The translations under genes were made by a program, and so were the position numbers. From Promethearchaeota archaeon (GTDB lineage: Archaea; Asgardarchaeota; Lokiarchaeia; Sigyniarchaeales; SOKP01): a stretch of 64,000 nucleotides of DNA. Positions within the stretch are counted from its first letter, which is position 1; every line of letters begins with the position of its first letter. The DNA lies in assembly GCA_048939015.1 (NCBI GenBank), contig JBHLPW010000008.1, positions 33,694 through 97,693 on the forward strand. Reading direction: 5' to 3'. The notes under the pieces were generated by a model. The model made no database searches. It saw only the letters and a program-made list of their open reading frames with translations, and was not told the DNA's origin. Below, in pieces: positions 27,441 to 34,742 of this stretch.

Positions 27441-28382
27441 TTATACTAAGTTTTTGTAATTTTTTGCTATACACCTAATATGATGATGGTTTGTGCCACA
27501 GCATCCCCCAAGAATTTGCATTTTAAAAGTTAAGAATAATTTAATCATTTTTTTAGCCCACGTTTTTGGATTTTCAGATAACGCTTTATTTATTATGTTC
27601 AACTCCTCAGGACTCTTCGTTGAACCATTTCCTTGCAATCCTTTAAGTCGTGTTTGAACTAATTCTGTATTATTAGGCTCAGTATTGATCGCACTTAGAC
27701 AAGTAGTAGGATGTACACAATTAACCATATATAAAATTGGTTTTGGTGCAACTGAATTATCAATAGTCGAAATTGCCTTATAAAGAGATGTACCATCAAG
27801 TATAGTTCCGTCTGGACGAATAACAAAACTTATTATATACTCACAGCCAGATTCTGCCATCGCTTTGGCTATACCGAGTGCCTCTGAAAAAGCAGGTAAT
27901 GTGCTAGCTAATAGAAAGTCTACTCCAGCACTATTTAACTCTTTTACTTGGACCTGATGAAAGTGATATGCCTCTTCACTTGATAATGCTTCTTTAGGAT
28001 TATACGCATCTCCTTTACATCCCATCAATCCTCCTATCAAGGATGTTGCACCTTTAAGGCTAAAGTGCCTTCTTATCTGATCTAAAAAATTGAAACAGTC
28101 AACATTCACATCCTTATCTTTGTACTCTGCTAATTCAATACGTTCTGGATTAGTACGCCAAGTGGGTGTTAGATTGAGAATTGGTATCTCATATTTATAT
28201 GCTATAGACATATATTGGCTATAAATTTTTTTGAGAATATTCCTGCCTTTAACATCATATACCATAGAGGCATTTTGAATGAAAGGATTTAATTTATATT
28301 TGAATTCGTGTTTTATTCTTTCGATTACAGGTCCTTCAGCTAGTACTAATGGATTTTCTAGAATTATATCCTTTAATGACAT
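27441..28382 (-). CDS. Homocysteine S-methyltransferase family protein
   Basis: TPTWR, GDAY.P, GVDFL, VNCVHP, LGGCCGT Zn ligands. Confidence 0.88.
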   Translation of the reverse strand: MSLKDIILENPLVLAEGPVIERIKHEFKYKLNPFIQNASMVYDVKGRNILKKIYSQYMSIAYKYEIPILNLTPTWRTNPERIELAEYKDKDVNVDCFNFLDQIRRHFSLKGATSLIGGLMGCKGDAYNPKEALSSEEAYHFHQVQVKELNSAGVDFLLASTLPAFSEALGIAKAMAESGCEYIISFVIRPDGTILDGTSLYKAISTIDNSVAPKPILYMVNCVHPTTCLSAINTEPNNTELVQTRLKGLQGNGSTKSPEELNIINKALSENPKTWAKKMIKLFLTFKMQILGGCCGTNHHHIRCIAKNYKNLV

Positions 28383-28452
28383 CTTCGAATCAAAATCTCT
28401 AAAATATTTCAACATTTGTTATCTAAGTATAATAAAATTATCGTAATACAAT

Positions 28453-31400
28453 TTAAGCCTCGGGTAATAGAATTACAAAAGAATCTCCTTCGACCCATAT
28501 TTTTCCATTGTAATTATTTAATACTCGTTCGACTAAAAGAAATCCTAAAATTATTTCTTTAATTTTACTGTCCTTTTCTCTCTCTTTTTGGAATATCAAT
28601 TCTTTTCCTATATTTAAAATTTCTTTCTGATAATCAATAATTTTTACCTTTACATAATTCATGTCATCAATTTGATTTCTAACGATAATAATTTTAATTT
28701 CAATTGTTGGATTTTTATTATATCTAATGGAACTGATAAGGATATTCACAAAAACATCTATTAAAAATTTATCAGCTTTTACAAAAAGATCTTCAAATGG
28801 GTGTTCGACAGTTATTCTAATTGTTTTATTGGAATAGCTGTTTGTAATAAATTCTTTAACATCATCAATTACATCATATAAATTTACAGGCTCAATTATG
28901 ACATTTGTTTCACTAATCATAGTTAATTTTTGGATTATATATATTAGAAGTTGACCATTTATGCATTGATCTTTAATAGAATCCAATATTTTTCTTTTAG
29001 GACTTAAGATAATTTGATGATCCTGCTCGTTATATTCATCTACCGATCCTTGAATGTTCTTAATTATAGAACTTATATCTTTTATGAATAATTCTTTATA
29101 AAAATACTCTCTATCTAATTCTTGGTGCATATATTCTTCACTTATGCGTAAGTTTTCTTCAGCTGACATACGGAGCATCACATTTTTAAAAATCTCTGAA
29201 ATTATGGTTAAAATTTCTAAATTCTCTTCGATCCAATAATTATGATCTGATATATTATCAAAACAGACTATTGCTTCTAAAATCCCATTGATTTTTATTG
29301 AAAATGTTAGAAAGTTGTTCACTTTGTGATTCGTAAGAAAGTACTTTAAATTAACAGCTTCTCTAGGAAGCTCATCTACGTTTTTTACATAAAAATAATC
29401 AAATTCTTTAAATTTCTCTATTAACCATGGAAAATTATTAATGTCTATACTTTCGGGTAAATTTAATTGGGGAAGAATTAACTTGCGAGACCAGGTATAA
29501 TTTCCTTTAGTGAAACTAAAATTAATATTAAATATGTAAAGATATGCTCGTGTTGCTTTAATGAATTCACCGAGTTCTTTAAGTGAATCAATTATAGCTT
29601 CTTCAAATTTATGTATACCAACAAATCTAGAAATAATTTCAGCAATGATTGCTTTTAGTCTAGAAATTTTCTTTAGTTCCTCCTCTAACTTCTTCTGCTC
29701 TGTGATATTCTGACAAATAATTTGATAAAATGTCTCATCACCAATATCGACTAAAGATGATTGCAGATTTACCCAAATTAAATCACCATTTTTCTTATAA
29801 AGCTTAATTTCTAATGGAGAGAAAATTTTATCTCGTTCTTGCCTTTTCAGTCTTTCGAGAACATCCATTAGATTATCTTTGTGTATTAATGAAAGATCTA
29901 CAAATTTCCTTCCCATTAATTCATCTCTTGTATATTCTAGTGTTTCCTCTAAAACAGGATTAAAATCAACTAAATATCCCGCAGAGTCAATCAAAAGAAT
30001 AGAAAAGGGTGAATCTTCAAAAAGATGACGGTATTTTATTTCAGAATGCTTTAACTTGACTTCTGCTTCTATTCTCTCGCTAATATTCCTAATAATATAT
30101 TGAATTAAGATTTGTCCACCCATCTGTACTTCGTTAAAACTAATTTCCACAGGAATTAAATTACCAGAACTATCAATAACCTCTAATCTTAAGGGAAATG
30201 GATAATTAACCTGATCGAATACTTCCTCATTAAAATCGATATCAATTATATCACTTAATATTTGGCTTGAATGCAATCCAATAAAATCTTCAAATGGCCG
30301 TTGAAATAAAATCTCAGCCTCCTTATTAGCATCCATTATTATTCCGGAGTTCTTATCAATAATTAAAATGGCATCTCGAGCGGCTTTAAATAATGTCTCA
30401 TAATGTAATTCAGCTATTTTAAGAGCTTCAATTGCAGGTCGATATAGATCAATTTGATTATTTATTGTATTATGAATAATTTTAAGGATATAATTTATTT
30501 GATCTTTATTTAAATAGTTCTTTTTTATTTCATCAAGATACTGAAGTATAGTGGAACTAAATTGGTTGATTATATTTTTAGGAATCTTTTCATTATAATA
30601 AATTATTAAAGATAATGGTAATATCCCACCTCTAATACTCTCATTTGAAACATAATCGAAATAGATTGCTGCATTTGAATTTAAGTGAGGGAATGGAAGA
30701 ATTACAAAAGTTGGCTTAAACTCATCTCCTCCAAAAATAAATTGCGATATTGAGAAACTTTTAACAGATATCAATTCTGGATCATCAAATGCATCTTTGG
30801 GATAAACAGCTTCTACTTTAAGACCAAGATTTTCATCCCAATGACTAAAAATTATGCTAACTTCACTTCTGGGTGTATAATGATCAATTCTTTCTGCAAT
30901 TTTTAGCGAAAGCCAATTAAAAGCCTCATCAATATTTATGTTTTTAATCCCGCTTGTCAGATATGATTTCATTGGTCTCCTTGTGAGTTTCTTAACACCC
31001 ATAGCTTCATCTAATTCATTTATATCTGGTTGTTTTAAATCAATTTTATTGTAAAGAATAAGAAGGGGCAGTTCCCATAATTCTGGTATCCCTGCAATTT
31101 CATGCAATAATTCACGCGCAAATGAAAATTTAATTCTATCAGTTACATCTAAAACAAAAATTAATCCATCTTGATTTTTAAGATAAGGCTTCCACAGTTG
31201 TTTTGCTTTATATTTTCCAGGAATATCATATGTTAACAACGATACATTATTAACTAAAATTCTAGAAATGTCCACATTTATTGTTGGAAATGTTGTTTTT
31301 GATACTGATTTCCTTCGCGTTTTAATTATTGTAGATTTTCCTGCCATCGTTAGACCGAAAATTAATATTTTTGCCTCCTTTTGTTCAAATATAATTTCTT

Positions 31401-31845
31401 GCTCAGGAAAAGATGTATGAAAGGTTTCGAGTAATATTCTTATCTCCTCGAGCTTTGCAGAATCTCCGTTATAAATTCTAGAGTTCACATAAAACCCTTT
31501 AAATGCATCTTTGATTTTTTTGAACTCTTCGACAAATCCTTCTAAAAACTCTTCAACTAAAGCAGAATTAATTTTGGATTTACCATCAATAACTAATGAG
31601 ATTAAAAGGCGCTCCTCTTTCGTTCTTGAATATTCACTTGGAATTTTGAAAATTAAATTAGCGGTTTTAAAAGTTCCAAATGTATGTTTAAAAAATCCTT
31701 TTTCATAGAGATCTATTAACAATGGTACTTGTTTAATATCATCTCTTTGAATAGTTTCAGGCATTTTTAAAAAAATATATGGAGGAAAATATGGATTCCG
31801 ATGACTTAAAACTAACATTCTCAAATTAAAACAACCTCTTTTCAC
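28453..31845 (-). CDS. Multidomain signalling protein: longin-like, Arf-like GTPase, longin-like, PAS, PAS, GAF, degenerate histidine kinase (true start probably TTG at 31824)
   Basis: G1 GLTMAGKST, G2 PT, G3 DIPG, G4 NKID, G5 TSG; Arf-like LWKPY/DGLIFVLD; two PAS/PAC repeats; GAF; HisKA/HATPase-like tail ending GKIWVE. Confidence 0.88.
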   Translation of the reverse strand: MKRGCFNLRMLVLSHRNPYFPPYIFLKMPETIQRDDIKQVPLLIDLYEKGFFKHTFGTFKTANLIFKIPSEYSRTKEERLLISLVIDGKSKINSALVEEFLEGFVEEFKKIKDAFKGFYVNSRIYNGDSAKLEEIRILLETFHTSFPEQEIIFEQKEAKILIFGLTMAGKSTIIKTRRKSVSKTTFPTINVDISRILVNNVSLLTYDIPGKYKAKQLWKPYLKNQDGLIFVLDVTDRIKFSFARELLHEIAGIPELWELPLLILYNKIDLKQPDINELDEAMGVKKLTRRPMKSYLTSGIKNINIDEAFNWLSLKIAERIDHYTPRSEVSIIFSHWDENLGLKVEAVYPKDAFDDPELISVKSFSISQFIFGGDEFKPTFVILPFPHLNSNAAIYFDYVSNESIRGGILPLSLIIYYNEKIPKNIINQFSSTILQYLDEIKKNYLNKDQINYILKIIHNTINNQIDLYRPAIEALKIAELHYETLFKAARDAILIIDKNSGIIMDANKEAEILFQRPFEDFIGLHSSQILSDIIDIDFNEEVFDQVNYPFPLRLEVIDSSGNLIPVEISFNEVQMGGQILIQYIIRNISERIEAEVKLKHSEIKYRHLFEDSPFSILLIDSAGYLVDFNPVLEETLEYTRDELMGRKFVDLSLIHKDNLMDVLERLKRQERDKIFSPLEIKLYKKNGDLIWVNLQSSLVDIGDETFYQIICQNITEQKKLEEELKKISRLKAIIAEIISRFVGIHKFEEAIIDSLKELGEFIKATRAYLYIFNINFSFTKGNYTWSRKLILPQLNLPESIDINNFPWLIEKFKEFDYFYVKNVDELPREAVNLKYFLTNHKVNNFLTFSIKINGILEAIVCFDNISDHNYWIEENLEILTIISEIFKNVMLRMSAEENLRISEEYMHQELDREYFYKELFIKDISSIIKNIQGSVDEYNEQDHQIILSPKRKILDSIKDQCINGQLLIYIIQKLTMISETNVIIEPVNLYDVIDDVKEFITNSYSNKTIRITVEHPFEDLFVKADKFLIDVFVNILISSIRYNKNPTIEIKIIIVRNQIDDMNYVKVKIIDYQKEILNIGKELIFQKEREKDSKIKEIILGFLLVERVLNNYNGKIWVEGDSFVILLPEA

Positions 31846-33263: not shown

Positions 33264-34742
33264 CTAAATCTCCAAAATTCCATCCCACGCCTTTCTTTCT
33301 TTTTCGAACAATTTATTAGCTGTTTTAATTTCATTTCCGAATATAAGTGTAGTTCTGCTTTTGCTATCATAAGTAGGCCAATTCGGAATACCCTCATGAT
33401 TCGGGGTTCCATTATGAGCAAATGACAGCCATGCATCCATCATATTTTCGCATAATTTTTCTGTATTAGATGCATTACCTACTAAAGCTTTCATTCCGGG
33501 GTCTTTAAAAGTATTAAATACAAACGGAAGTTCAAGAGCATGACAAGCACCAAACATTCCATCACTTATAGAAGTCTCCCAAGTAAATAGATAGTTATAA
33601 GTATTTGGTTGATATTTAGACTGTACTTCAAGAATTTGCAGTGTTGCAACTCGAAACATTAGATCAGTAACAATTGCATCCAACAATTCCTTTGGTTCAA
33701 TTGACAATAATCCTGTTCGTGCTTCTTTATAAGCATCAATGAGATTTCGAGCATTCTCAGAATTTATTCCCATCATACCTAAATAAAGCATTATAGCTTT
33801 TTCATGACGAATTTTTCTTGTTAGAGGATTCAATGAAGTAAGAAGTTTGGCTTCATGAAGATTAGTTCCCATCATTAAATCAATATTTTTACATTTACCC
33901 TCCTTGAATACTGTTAAAGGATGCACAGGAATTGTCTCACCATCGATTACTGGTCTAAAAGGTAGTGCGCCTGTCTTTGTGATTTCATTTTGAGCTTTTA
34001 TTATATCTTCAGGTGCGATTTCACGTAATGCATTGATATCTCTATTCTTTATCCCTAATGCTTTCATTAAATCTTTAGTAGGTTTTTTTGTATCTTTTGG
34101 ATCAATAAAAGGCATACTCTGTGCTATAATTCGGCGATATAAACCATCAGCAGCAGGCATCGCTGTTAAAGTAATAACAGAGTGAGCACCTGCAGACTCT
34201 CCAAAAATCGTAATATTACCTGGATCACCTCCAAATTTAGCAATATTATCATTAACCCATTTTAATGCTAAAATCTGATCTAGCATACCCATATTGGCAG
34301 TGACACCAGGAATGTAAAGATAACCAAAAGCGCCCAATCGGTAATTTATCGTTACTACCACAACATCTCCACGTAAAGCTAAGTGGGTTCCATCATATGC
34401 AGGAGATCTACCTCCACCAAAAAGGAATCCCCCTCCATGTAGCCAAAACATCACTGGCTTTTTCTTATTATCAATGGCCGGAGTCCATATATTAAGTGTT
34501 AAACAATCTTCACTTTCAGGTTGAAGTTTCCCAGTTACATCTTCCAATGCGGTATATCCTTGAAAAGCACAAGGTCCAAATTCAGTAGTTTCTAACACTC
34601 CATCCCAAGGCTTTTTAGCTTGTGGAGGACTAAATCGTAGATCGCCTATGGGGGCCTCGGCAAAGGGAATACCTTTAAAAATGTGCAAACCATCTTCAGT
34701 ATACCCTTTTATTTTTCCACAATTTATTTCTACAACTGTCAT
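33264..34742 (-). CDS. Type-B carboxylesterase/lipase (PnbA-like)
   Basis: FKGIPFA, SEDCLTLNIW, HGGG, NYRLG, GESAG, HALEL; ATG at 34742 preferred over the ORF-track start. Confidence 0.92.
   Translation of the reverse strand: MTVVEINCGKIKGYTEDGLHIFKGIPFAEAPIGDLRFSPPQAKKPWDGVLETTEFGPCAFQGYTALEDVTGKLQPESEDCLTLNIWTPAIDNKKKPVMFWLHGGGFLFGGGRSPAYDGTHLALRGDVVVVTINYRLGAFGYLYIPGVTANMGMLDQILALKWVNDNIAKFGGDPGNITIFGESAGAHSVITLTAMPAADGLYRRIIAQSMPFIDPKDTKKPTKDLMKALGIKNRDINALREIAPEDIIKAQNEITKTGALPFRPVIDGETIPVHPLTVFKEGKCKNIDLMMGTNLHEAKLLTSLNPLTRKIRHEKAIMLYLGMMGINSENARNLIDAYKEARTGLLSIEPKELLDAIVTDLMFRVATLQILEVQSKYQPNTYNYLFTWETSISDGMFGACHALELPFVFNTFKDPGMKALVGNASNTEKLCENMMDAWLSFAHNGTPNHEGIPNWPTYDSKSRTTLIFGNEIKTANKLFEKERKAWDGILEI

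Follow-up and report, generated by a model that had tools for sequence, protein, structure and literature searches.

Introduction

In eukaryotes, longin domains of one class pair into platforms that cradle an Arf or Rag GTPase and provide the arginine for its catalysis. These longin-pair GTPase-activating proteins (GAPs), among them folliculin, GATOR1, and C9orf72-SMCR8, act in mTORC1 signaling and in the control of Arf traffic and are encoded by disease genes. In the C9orf72-SMCR8(-WDR41) complex with ARF1 (PDB 7mge; PMC8213707), the longins and the GTPase are separate chains. In the heterodimers FLCN-FNIP2 and GATOR1 (NPRL2-NPRL3), the arginine has been retained by just one of the two longins; their substrates are Rag heterodimers, and their separate subunits carry C-terminal DENN or NPRL domains. 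Here, we describe a gene on the minus strand (28453 to 31818) of a 64-kb stretch of DNA, hereafter the window, from a Promethearchaeota archaeon. Its product holds an Arf-family GTPase between two longins of this class and continues, in the same chain, with two PAS domains, a GAF domain, and a dead histidine kinase.

The protein departs from the C9orf72-SMCR8-WDR41 complex in several respects. Whereas the eukaryotic partners are separate, the archaeal GTPase is inserted between its longins in one chain, with no DENN domains and no WDR41. A Trp-Asp pair and an invariant arginine lie in the same longin, the proline of the glycine-proline (GP) motif is missing there, and the GTPase lacks the catalytic glutamine. 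The asymmetry of FLCN-FNIP2 and GATOR1 recurs in that the arginine of the first longin decays while that of the second is invariant; however, the GTPase is an Arf rather than a Rag.

Prokaryotes offer parallels of their own. In the actinobacterial conservon (CvnA-D), a small GTPase with a regulatory partner from the roadblock/longin superfamily works alongside a kinase-like sensor. Bacterial MglA-MglB likewise pairs a prokaryotic small GTPase with a regulator of that superfamily (PMC10933270), and both systems resemble the present one in this form of regulation. Closer in lineage and in building blocks are fusions from Asgard archaea. NPRL2-like longins fused to two-component domains are described in outline in a preprint by Liu et al. 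(10.1101/2020.10.19.343400), Asgard GTPases that carry a fused longin or roadblock domain by Tran et al. (PMC10933270), and longin N-termini in Asgard Arf proteins by Zhu et al. A 2025 survey in Traffic (PMC12290439) further describes Asgard longins with a GP motif and an arginine and raises their GAP activity as a possibility.

A GTPase between two such longins, combined with PAS-PAS-GAF and a degenerate kinase, appears in none of the available texts of Liu et al., Tran et al., and PMC12290439, figures aside. Our literature search returned no paper joining an Asgard GTPase and a longin with a histidine kinase or an Asgard small GTPase with PAS and two-component domains, and none for newly solved Lokiarchaeal Rag and longin structures. 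The author of an earlier note on this DNA knew of no characterized protein with this architecture; we also found none in the literature searched, but the novelty was overstated, since fusions of the components are already in print. What is new here is the corrected start of the gene, a per-motif census of the family, the joint loss of the catalytic glutamine and the first-longin arginine, a graded decay of the kinase with a strongly constrained CA-like part, and unfused cassettes of the same components in the same genome.

Gene structure and domain architecture

On the minus strand, the interval from 28453 to 31845 forms one uninterrupted reading frame with 1130 codons counted from a GTG at 31845, and we number residues from this GTG throughout (nucleotide coordinates are window positions). 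The open reading frame (ORF) on which the earlier note was based is thus genuine, but its start requires correction. Because residues 10 to 27 are conserved across orthologues and supply strand 1 of the first longin in an AlphaFold2 model, translation probably begins at the ATG of M10 (window position 31818), which gives a gene of 1121 codons with its stop at 28453 to 28455 and a product of 1121 amino acids (aa). The database gene call (P0002) begins at M28 (31764) and cuts into the first longin domain, which thereby loses its first two strands. Guanine-plus-cytosine content over the gene is ~28%, the same as in its surroundings. The window corresponds to positions 33694 to 97693 of contig C64 in a metagenome-assembled genome of 4.86 Mb and 125 contigs, estimated to be 95% complete with 6.5% contamination.

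The domains follow in the order longin, Arf-family GTPase, longin, PAS, PAS, GAF, DHp-like, and CA-like. The N-terminal 470 residues are a single-chain Arf GTPase set with short linkers between two longins of the FLCN/NPRL2/SMCR8/C9orf72 class, while the C-terminal 650 residues comprise the PAS-PAS-GAF array and a transmitter that lacks the phospho-acceptor histidine and the ATP-lid glycines and is still conserved. Pfam calls nothing over residues 1 to 150, 320 to 475, and 730 to 1020, and NCBIfam agrees with the Pfam domain calls. No 19-residue window in the whole protein is hydrophobic enough for a membrane helix, and the protein is predicted to be soluble.

The flanking longins

Both domains that flank the GTPase are longins by fold, as had been proposed. 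The first (N-type) longin spans 31390 to 31818 (aa 10 to 152) and the second (mid-type) longin 30412 to 30891 (aa 319 to 478), both on the minus strand. AlphaFold2 models built from alignments of 31 and 35 orthologues reached predicted local distance difference test scores of 93.5 and 86.6, respectively, and show the longin topology β-β-α-β-β-β-α-α; the second longin closes with a helix of ~30 residues (approximately aa 447 to 478) that continues into PAS 1. The top Foldseek match for both was a GATOR1 chain taken as NPRL2 (E values of 2e-5 and 3.5e-5), followed by Lst4, chains of the FLCN-FNIP2 complex, and a Lokiarchaeal longin. Scores of the first longin against solved folds were 12.9, then 12.2 (NPRL2) and 12.1 (FLCN-complex chain), and the solved folds nearest to the two flanks include NPRL2/NPRL3, FLCN/FNIP2, Lst4, C9orf72, and the Lokiarchaeal longin. 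A shape search of the ESM Atlas returned a Heimdall cluster with Pfam Folliculin (template modeling [TM] score of 0.76) and eukaryotic SMCR8-like proteins (TM score of 0.77), as well as NPR2, Avl9, and uDENN clusters.

The same relationships are faint at the level of primary structure. The earlier note had called the two flanking domains similar, which holds for their common fold but not for their sequences: pairwise likeness was not significant by BLAST (E value of 0.34) or hhalign (probability of 1.5%), and the two longin families share a weak reciprocal hidden Markov model cross-hit at matching positions (independent E value of 0.0022). Profiles of either longin searched against the sequences of solved structures returned nothing relevant, and neither Pfam Folliculin (PF11704) nor NPR2 (PF06218) matched this protein above cutoff. 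Among the family longin segments, Folliculin matched 1 of 31 and 1 of 35 (E values of 0.007 and 0.19), with otherwise stray hits, and the relative P0094 scored 19.9 bits against a Folliculin cutoff of 23.3.

According to PMC12290439, GAP-type longins are recognizable by a GP motif immediately ahead of strand 2 together with an arginine finger in the adjoining loop, and C9orf72 has an essential W33-D34 pair five residues ahead of G38-P39. We therefore took a census of these motifs in 108 family members of at least 900 residues. The second longin of our protein reads W336-D337-E-N-L-G341, a spacing equal to that of human C9orf72 from W33-D34 to G38, and the start of the structural alignment range (model residue 8 to C9orf72 chain residue 22/23) places its tryptophan within one residue of W33. 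Its R405, in the IRGG of the β4-β5 loop, lies three residues ahead of strand 5. The Trp-Asp pair is kept in 106 of 108 relatives and the arginine in 107 of 108; the glycine of the GP motif is always kept, and its proline is never kept, being replaced by Leu, Ile, or Val, while related receiver-longin (REC-longin) proteins retain GP. The same WD..GP plus arginine signature recurs among the second-longin relatives encoded in this genome, namely two response regulators with longin output, a longin-Rag, a longin-Ras, and a Ras-longin protein.

In the first longin, the motifs are eroded. Relatives carry GP and ARG at positions where this protein has a degenerate GP, P21-P22, and R74 within SRT. The proline is invariant in the family, and the glycine, replaced by proline here, completes a GP in 28 relatives. 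R74 lies in the β4-β5 loop at a position equivalent to that of R405, in a column that is Arg in 66 of 107 sequences. Both R74 and R405 are equated with the arginine of GAP longins by loop position rather than by superposition on FLCN R164, SMCR8 R147, or NPRL2 R78.

Longins of the first type also occur elsewhere in the genome: a 554-aa paralogue (G000:C70:29601-31262) fuses one, complete with GP and ARG, to PAS-GAF-PAS, with no GTPase or kinase, and matching proteins of 554 to 555 aa are found in most genomes of the genus.

The GTPase and a possible link to the first-longin arginine

The GTPase (30892 to 31389, minus strand; aa 153 to 318) belongs to the Arf family. Pfam Arf (PF00025) matches aa 153 to 314 with 118.8 bits (E value of 2e-34; cutoff of 22.3), and the best solved match to the family profile is Arf1 (E value of 3.6e-35), the top 60 matches all being Arf, Arl, Sar, or Arf-like "GTP-binding protein" entries. 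The marks LWKPY, DGLIFVLD, PLLILYNKID, and AFNWL listed earlier are all present in the translation. The GxxxxGK[ST] P-loop (K170), the switch I threonine (T188), D207xxG, and N266-K-x-D are present and are invariant or nearly so in 35 orthologues. All five G motifs had been reported as present, which needs qualifying: the motifs just listed are intact, but the catalytic glutamine that should follow DxxG (Arf1 Q71) is a lysine, K211, in DIPGK (codon at 31213 to 31215). The amphipathic, often myristoylated helix that begins Arf proteins and binds membranes is absent; instead, the 143-residue longin precedes the G domain across a linker of only ~8 residues.

Lysine at this position is common in the family. 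Across the 108 members, the catalytic position is Gln in 53, Lys in 48, Tyr in 4, and His in 3, and its state covaries with the first-longin arginine, which is lost in none of the 56 members with Gln or His but in 42 of the 52 in which Lys or Tyr is found. When the glutamine and arginine columns are left out of the tree, three changes at the glutamine position can be placed on it: one clade acquires Tyr, a 50-member crown clade that includes our protein acquires Lys at its base, and one pair returns to Gln. The first-longin arginine follows each of these changes. These amount to three independent contrasts, too few for a sign test to reach significance. Such joint loss would be expected if the first-longin arginine worked with the glutamine in hydrolysis.

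Sensor domains and the kinase-like tail

PAS 1 (30052 to 30411, minus strand; aa ~479 to 598) is matched by Pfam PAS_8/PAS_9 in two stretches and by TIGR00229, and PAS 2 (29662 to 30051, minus strand; aa ~599 to 728) by Pfam PAS_9 at 614 to 716 and TIGR00229 at 600 to 724 (E value of 4e-32), with Pfam extents of about 482 to 590 and 604 to 718 for the two domains. The GAF domain (29161 to 29661, minus strand; aa ~729 to 895) is divergent and is the least constrained of the sensor domains. Pfam makes no GAF call in this protein; however, it calls GAF or GAF_3 at the aligned position in orthologues, and a family profile of residues 729 to 895 matches solved GAF domains end to end (6bhn_A; E value of 1.4e-4). 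Both PAS domains and the GAF domain thus agree with the earlier assignment.

We aligned the tail with five canonical kinase paralogues from the same genome, HisKA being matched in four of them. The DHp-like helical hairpin (28804 to 29160, minus strand; aa ~896 to 1014) has the H-box LFIKDISSI, in which K922 occupies the position of the phospho-acceptor histidine (F.HD.NNI in the paralogues versus FIKDISSI here), and Pfam HisKA finds no match in the protein. In the CA-like (HATPase_c-like) domain (28456 to 28803, minus strand; aa ~1015 to 1130), the N-box asparagine, N1034, is kept (VFENIL.NA.KYN in the paralogues versus VFVNILISSIRYN here). The G1 and G2 boxes are lost, with DYQKEI in place of DNGIGI (canonically DxGxG) and EIILGFLLV in place of G.G.GLSLV, and a nine-residue insert of the paralogues is missing. 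HATPase_c scores 25.1 bits at residues 1027 to 1129, under its cutoff of 26.4, compared with 50 to 72 bits in the five aligned paralogues and up to 97 bits in other kinases of the genome. The family profile of the tail nonetheless matches HK853 over both DHp and CA (3dge_A; E value of 9e-13). A dead histidine kinase, as predicted from the ORF, therefore describes this tail well.

Decay of the kinase is graded across the family. The phospho-acceptor histidine is kept in only 15 of 108 relatives, which are deep branching, and most have Asn in its place. P0124 (833 aa) joins the longin-Arf-longin module to PAS and a kinase in which all four boxes (His, N, G1, and G2) are intact. In P0123 (2317 aa), PAS and GAF domains are numerous, the ATP-binding boxes are intact, and a tyrosine occupies the histidine position. 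Tyrosine at the phospho-acceptor position is also seen in DivL-type pseudokinases. Since the deep-branching relatives keep the histidine and the boxes of P0124 are intact, a working kinase was probably ancestral and then decayed stepwise. In comparisons with the three closest orthologues, the ratio of nonsynonymous to synonymous change (pN/pS) was 0.12 to 0.15 in the CA-like domain, 0.10 to 0.14 in the GTPase, 0.36 to 0.39 in the DHp-like hairpin, and 0.33 to 0.37 in GAF, and all domains are under purifying selection (0.10 to 0.39).

Distribution of the family and unfused cassettes

A search of 5.8 billion proteins recovered more than 100 clusters of full-length relatives (40 to 92% identity over 98 to 100% coverage) on independent contigs of up to 1.8 Mb, labeled Promethearchaeota or Lokiarchaeota, with some inconsistent Asgard labels; a second group of relatives, of ~950 residues, lacks only GAF. 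Over 35 full-length orthologues, mean column identity is 63%, and the G motifs and the Trp-Asp, glycine, and arginine of the second longin are invariant. Among 400 genomes of the phylum, complete longin-Arf-longin occurs only in the family to which the organism belongs and in a single genome from another family within that order, so that the family is confined to one Lokiarchaeial order. The full-length form is present in ~30 of the 53 species of the genus, and it is absent from several genomes of 96 to 99% completeness. In other families of the class, a two-domain longin-Arf protein of ~325 residues is all that occurs.

An exhaustive search of 1.84 billion representatives with the second-longin profile found only 162 proteins, ~25 of which, from 473 to 2317 residues long, have the second longin at residues 310 to 470. 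Several of the relatives examined have no kinase: longin-Arf-longin stands alone (499 aa) or is followed by two PAS domains (703 and 721 aa), three PAS domains (852 aa), at least four (1383 aa), or at least seven (1772 aa). P0157 (567 aa) is a response regulator in which the receiver is joined directly to an Arf-longin pair as its output; the Arf GTPase has a canonical DLGGQ, and the longin, at the C terminus, reads WDENYGP and VRGG. The same longin type is N-terminal in P0162, P0164, and ~25 similar proteins of 630 to 720 aa, followed by TPR repeats in the two members examined.

Unfused versions of these components are encoded in clusters. One strand of contig C103 of this genome (G000:C103:1245-5060) encodes an Arf/Rag-like GTPase (184 aa), a MASE3-PAS-HisKA-HATPase_c kinase (724 aa), and a REC-longin regulator (308 aa) whose output is a longin of the WD/GP/Arg type. 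On contig C77 (G000:C77:49781-53090), a histidine kinase (566 aa) is divergent from a REC-longin (297 aa), which is directly followed by an Arf/Rag-like GTPase (191 aa). A genome of another family (G129, L038:2725-8915) has a packed minus-strand operon that combines a PAS-HisKA-HATPase_c kinase and a REC-longin with a 168-aa protein that belongs to no known family and with two Rag-like GTPases, between which a two-domain longin-Arf protein is encoded; this longin-Arf protein is the two-domain protein closest to ours. These cassettes place under two-component control the longin type (WD/GP/Arg) and the kind of partner GTPase that our protein contains. They differ in that their components are separate proteins, predicted to be linked by phosphotransfer, whereas our protein has its sensors in the same chain and a dead kinase.

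The immediate neighbors of the gene in the window are metabolic and encode a homocysteine S-methyltransferase, a NosD-like β-helix protein, and a divergent metallo-β-lactamase. The homocysteine S-methyltransferase gene (27441 to 28415) lies on the same strand, 37 nucleotides downstream, and could be cotranscribed.

Possible modes of action

We infer from this anatomy that the protein is a sensor-coupled GTPase module whose nucleotide-dependent state is the output, a reading that we favor with our confidence about evenly divided. The PAS/GAF sensors would change conformation upon a signal, the long helix joining PAS 1 to the second longin would relay this change, and the relay would alter how the longin pair (W336-D337 and R405) engages the nucleotide pocket or the switch regions of the GTPase. 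Partners would then read the module according to its bound nucleotide, while the kinase-like tail would act as a dimer scaffold or docking surface rather than as a phosphodonor. The protein probably dimerizes through the DHp-like hairpin. Since the catalytic glutamine is lost and the first-longin motifs are eroded, rapid GAP-type hydrolysis has probably been given up in this clade, and its module is more likely a slowly cycling or GTP-latched conformational device.

We prefer this direction of signaling because relatives pair the module with PAS arrays that lack a kinase and because longins of this type also serve, next to small GTPases, as output domains under phospho-control. The kinase-less relatives show, as far as domain composition can, that the module works without phosphotransfer. 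It had been suggested that sensory input reaches the GTPase through a kinase-derived scaffold instead of by phosphotransfer. Sensory input to the GTPase is plausible and is aided by the kinase-less relatives and the unfused cassettes, but the path through the kinase scaffold is unlikely because the sensors stand between the GTPase and the tail.

Several observations weigh against our favored reading. The module is N-terminal, where sensor kinases carry their input domains, and the ancestral flow may have run from the GTPase to the kinase, as the canonical boxes of the P0124 kinase would allow. Constraint on the CA-like domain equals that on the GTPase, hinting at more than a passive scaffold. 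No neighbor is conserved at 11 orthologous loci within flanks of ~1.5 kb, the homocysteine S-methyltransferase gene included. Furthermore, K211 replaces the catalytic glutamine and the GP and arginine motifs of the first longin are eroded in this protein, so that a GAP-driven switch may have stopped operating here and the GTPase, having lost its glutamine, may not be a fast-cycling switch. The invariance of the second-longin arginine, whatever the state of the glutamine, suggests that it may have a role other than as a finger for the GTPase in cis. Contact of either longin arginine with the nucleotide in cis is putative, the models covering each longin singly.

A more specific proposal is that the family is a single-chain archaeal counterpart of C9orf72-SMCR8:ARF1, FLCN-FNIP:RagC, and GATOR1:RagA, in which the first-longin arginine would be a finger in cis paired with the glutamine, and the Trp-Asp pair and arginine of the second longin would hold the switches, all gated by PAS/GAF. 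We regard this as tentative and doubt it more than we believe it.

About equally doubtful is the converse of our favored flow, in which the GTPase module is an input whose state, which might for instance report the GTP level or a partner protein, is integrated with PAS/GAF signals and passed to the pseudokinase, which would bind or modulate a separate kinase or response regulator. DivL-type pseudokinases would be the model for such a tail. The module occupies the N-terminal slot typical of sensor-kinase inputs, the kinase boxes of P0124 and the ATP-binding boxes of P0123 are intact, deep-branching orthologues retain the histidine, the CA-like domain has a pN/pS as low as that of the GTPase, and the genome encodes many orphan kinases and receivers, all of which would fit an input role. 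However, relatives with longin-Arf-longin alone or with PAS arrays are common and have no transmitter to feed, no response regulator or kinase is a conserved neighbor, and the DHp-like hairpin, on which a receiver would dock, is the least constrained part (pN/pS of 0.36 to 0.39).

The role of the longins themselves could also differ. They might form an exchange-factor or scaffold platform of the TRAPP, Mon1-Ccz1, or DENN kind, or an intramolecular inhibitor that hides the switches, with the arginine and Trp-Asp pair being structural. Most eukaryotic longin platforms are exchange factors, according to PMC10933270; a Pfam Folliculin match is limited to 1 of 31 and 1 of 35 family members; and the second-longin arginine is kept even where the catalytic glutamine is gone. 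Nevertheless, members of both longin families carry the GP and arginine motifs reported to be specific to GAP longins (PMC12290439), and the first-longin arginine is lost only where Lys or Tyr has replaced Gln or His, as a finger paired with the glutamine would be. We consider a platform or inhibitor role of this kind quite improbable.

That the ORF arose by chimeric assembly or belongs to a gene in decay, as its metagenome-assembled source with 6.5% contamination and its lost kinase residues might suggest, is so improbable that we regard it as ruled out by the >100 full-length orthologue clusters on independent contigs, by the presence of the gene in ~30 of the 53 species of the genus, by contigs from a second sediment sample (short, unitig-like pieces, none spanning the whole gene) that cross the longin/Arf/longin junctions without a difference, and by pN/pS values far under 1 in all domains.

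Implications

The origin and catalytic mechanism of the eukaryotic longin-pair GAPs are still debated. This family brings an Arf-type GTPase, two longins, and sensors together in one soluble chain, with a module of ~470 residues, and provides a natural series of variants with and without the catalytic glutamine, with and without the first arginine, and with a live, dead, or absent kinase. It thereby makes testable whether Asgard longins act as GAPs, which longin gives the finger, and how the coupling of prokaryotic sensing to eukaryote-type GTPase control began. If the first-longin arginine is indeed a finger in cis, the origin of the eukaryotic nutrient-sensing longin GAPs would become testable in one soluble protein, and the family would supply natural "finger-off" variants, this protein among them. 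The value of this particular gene lies not in a first sighting but in its being a well-documented member of its family, which may offer a compact model for eukaryote-type GTPase control wired to prokaryote-type sensing.

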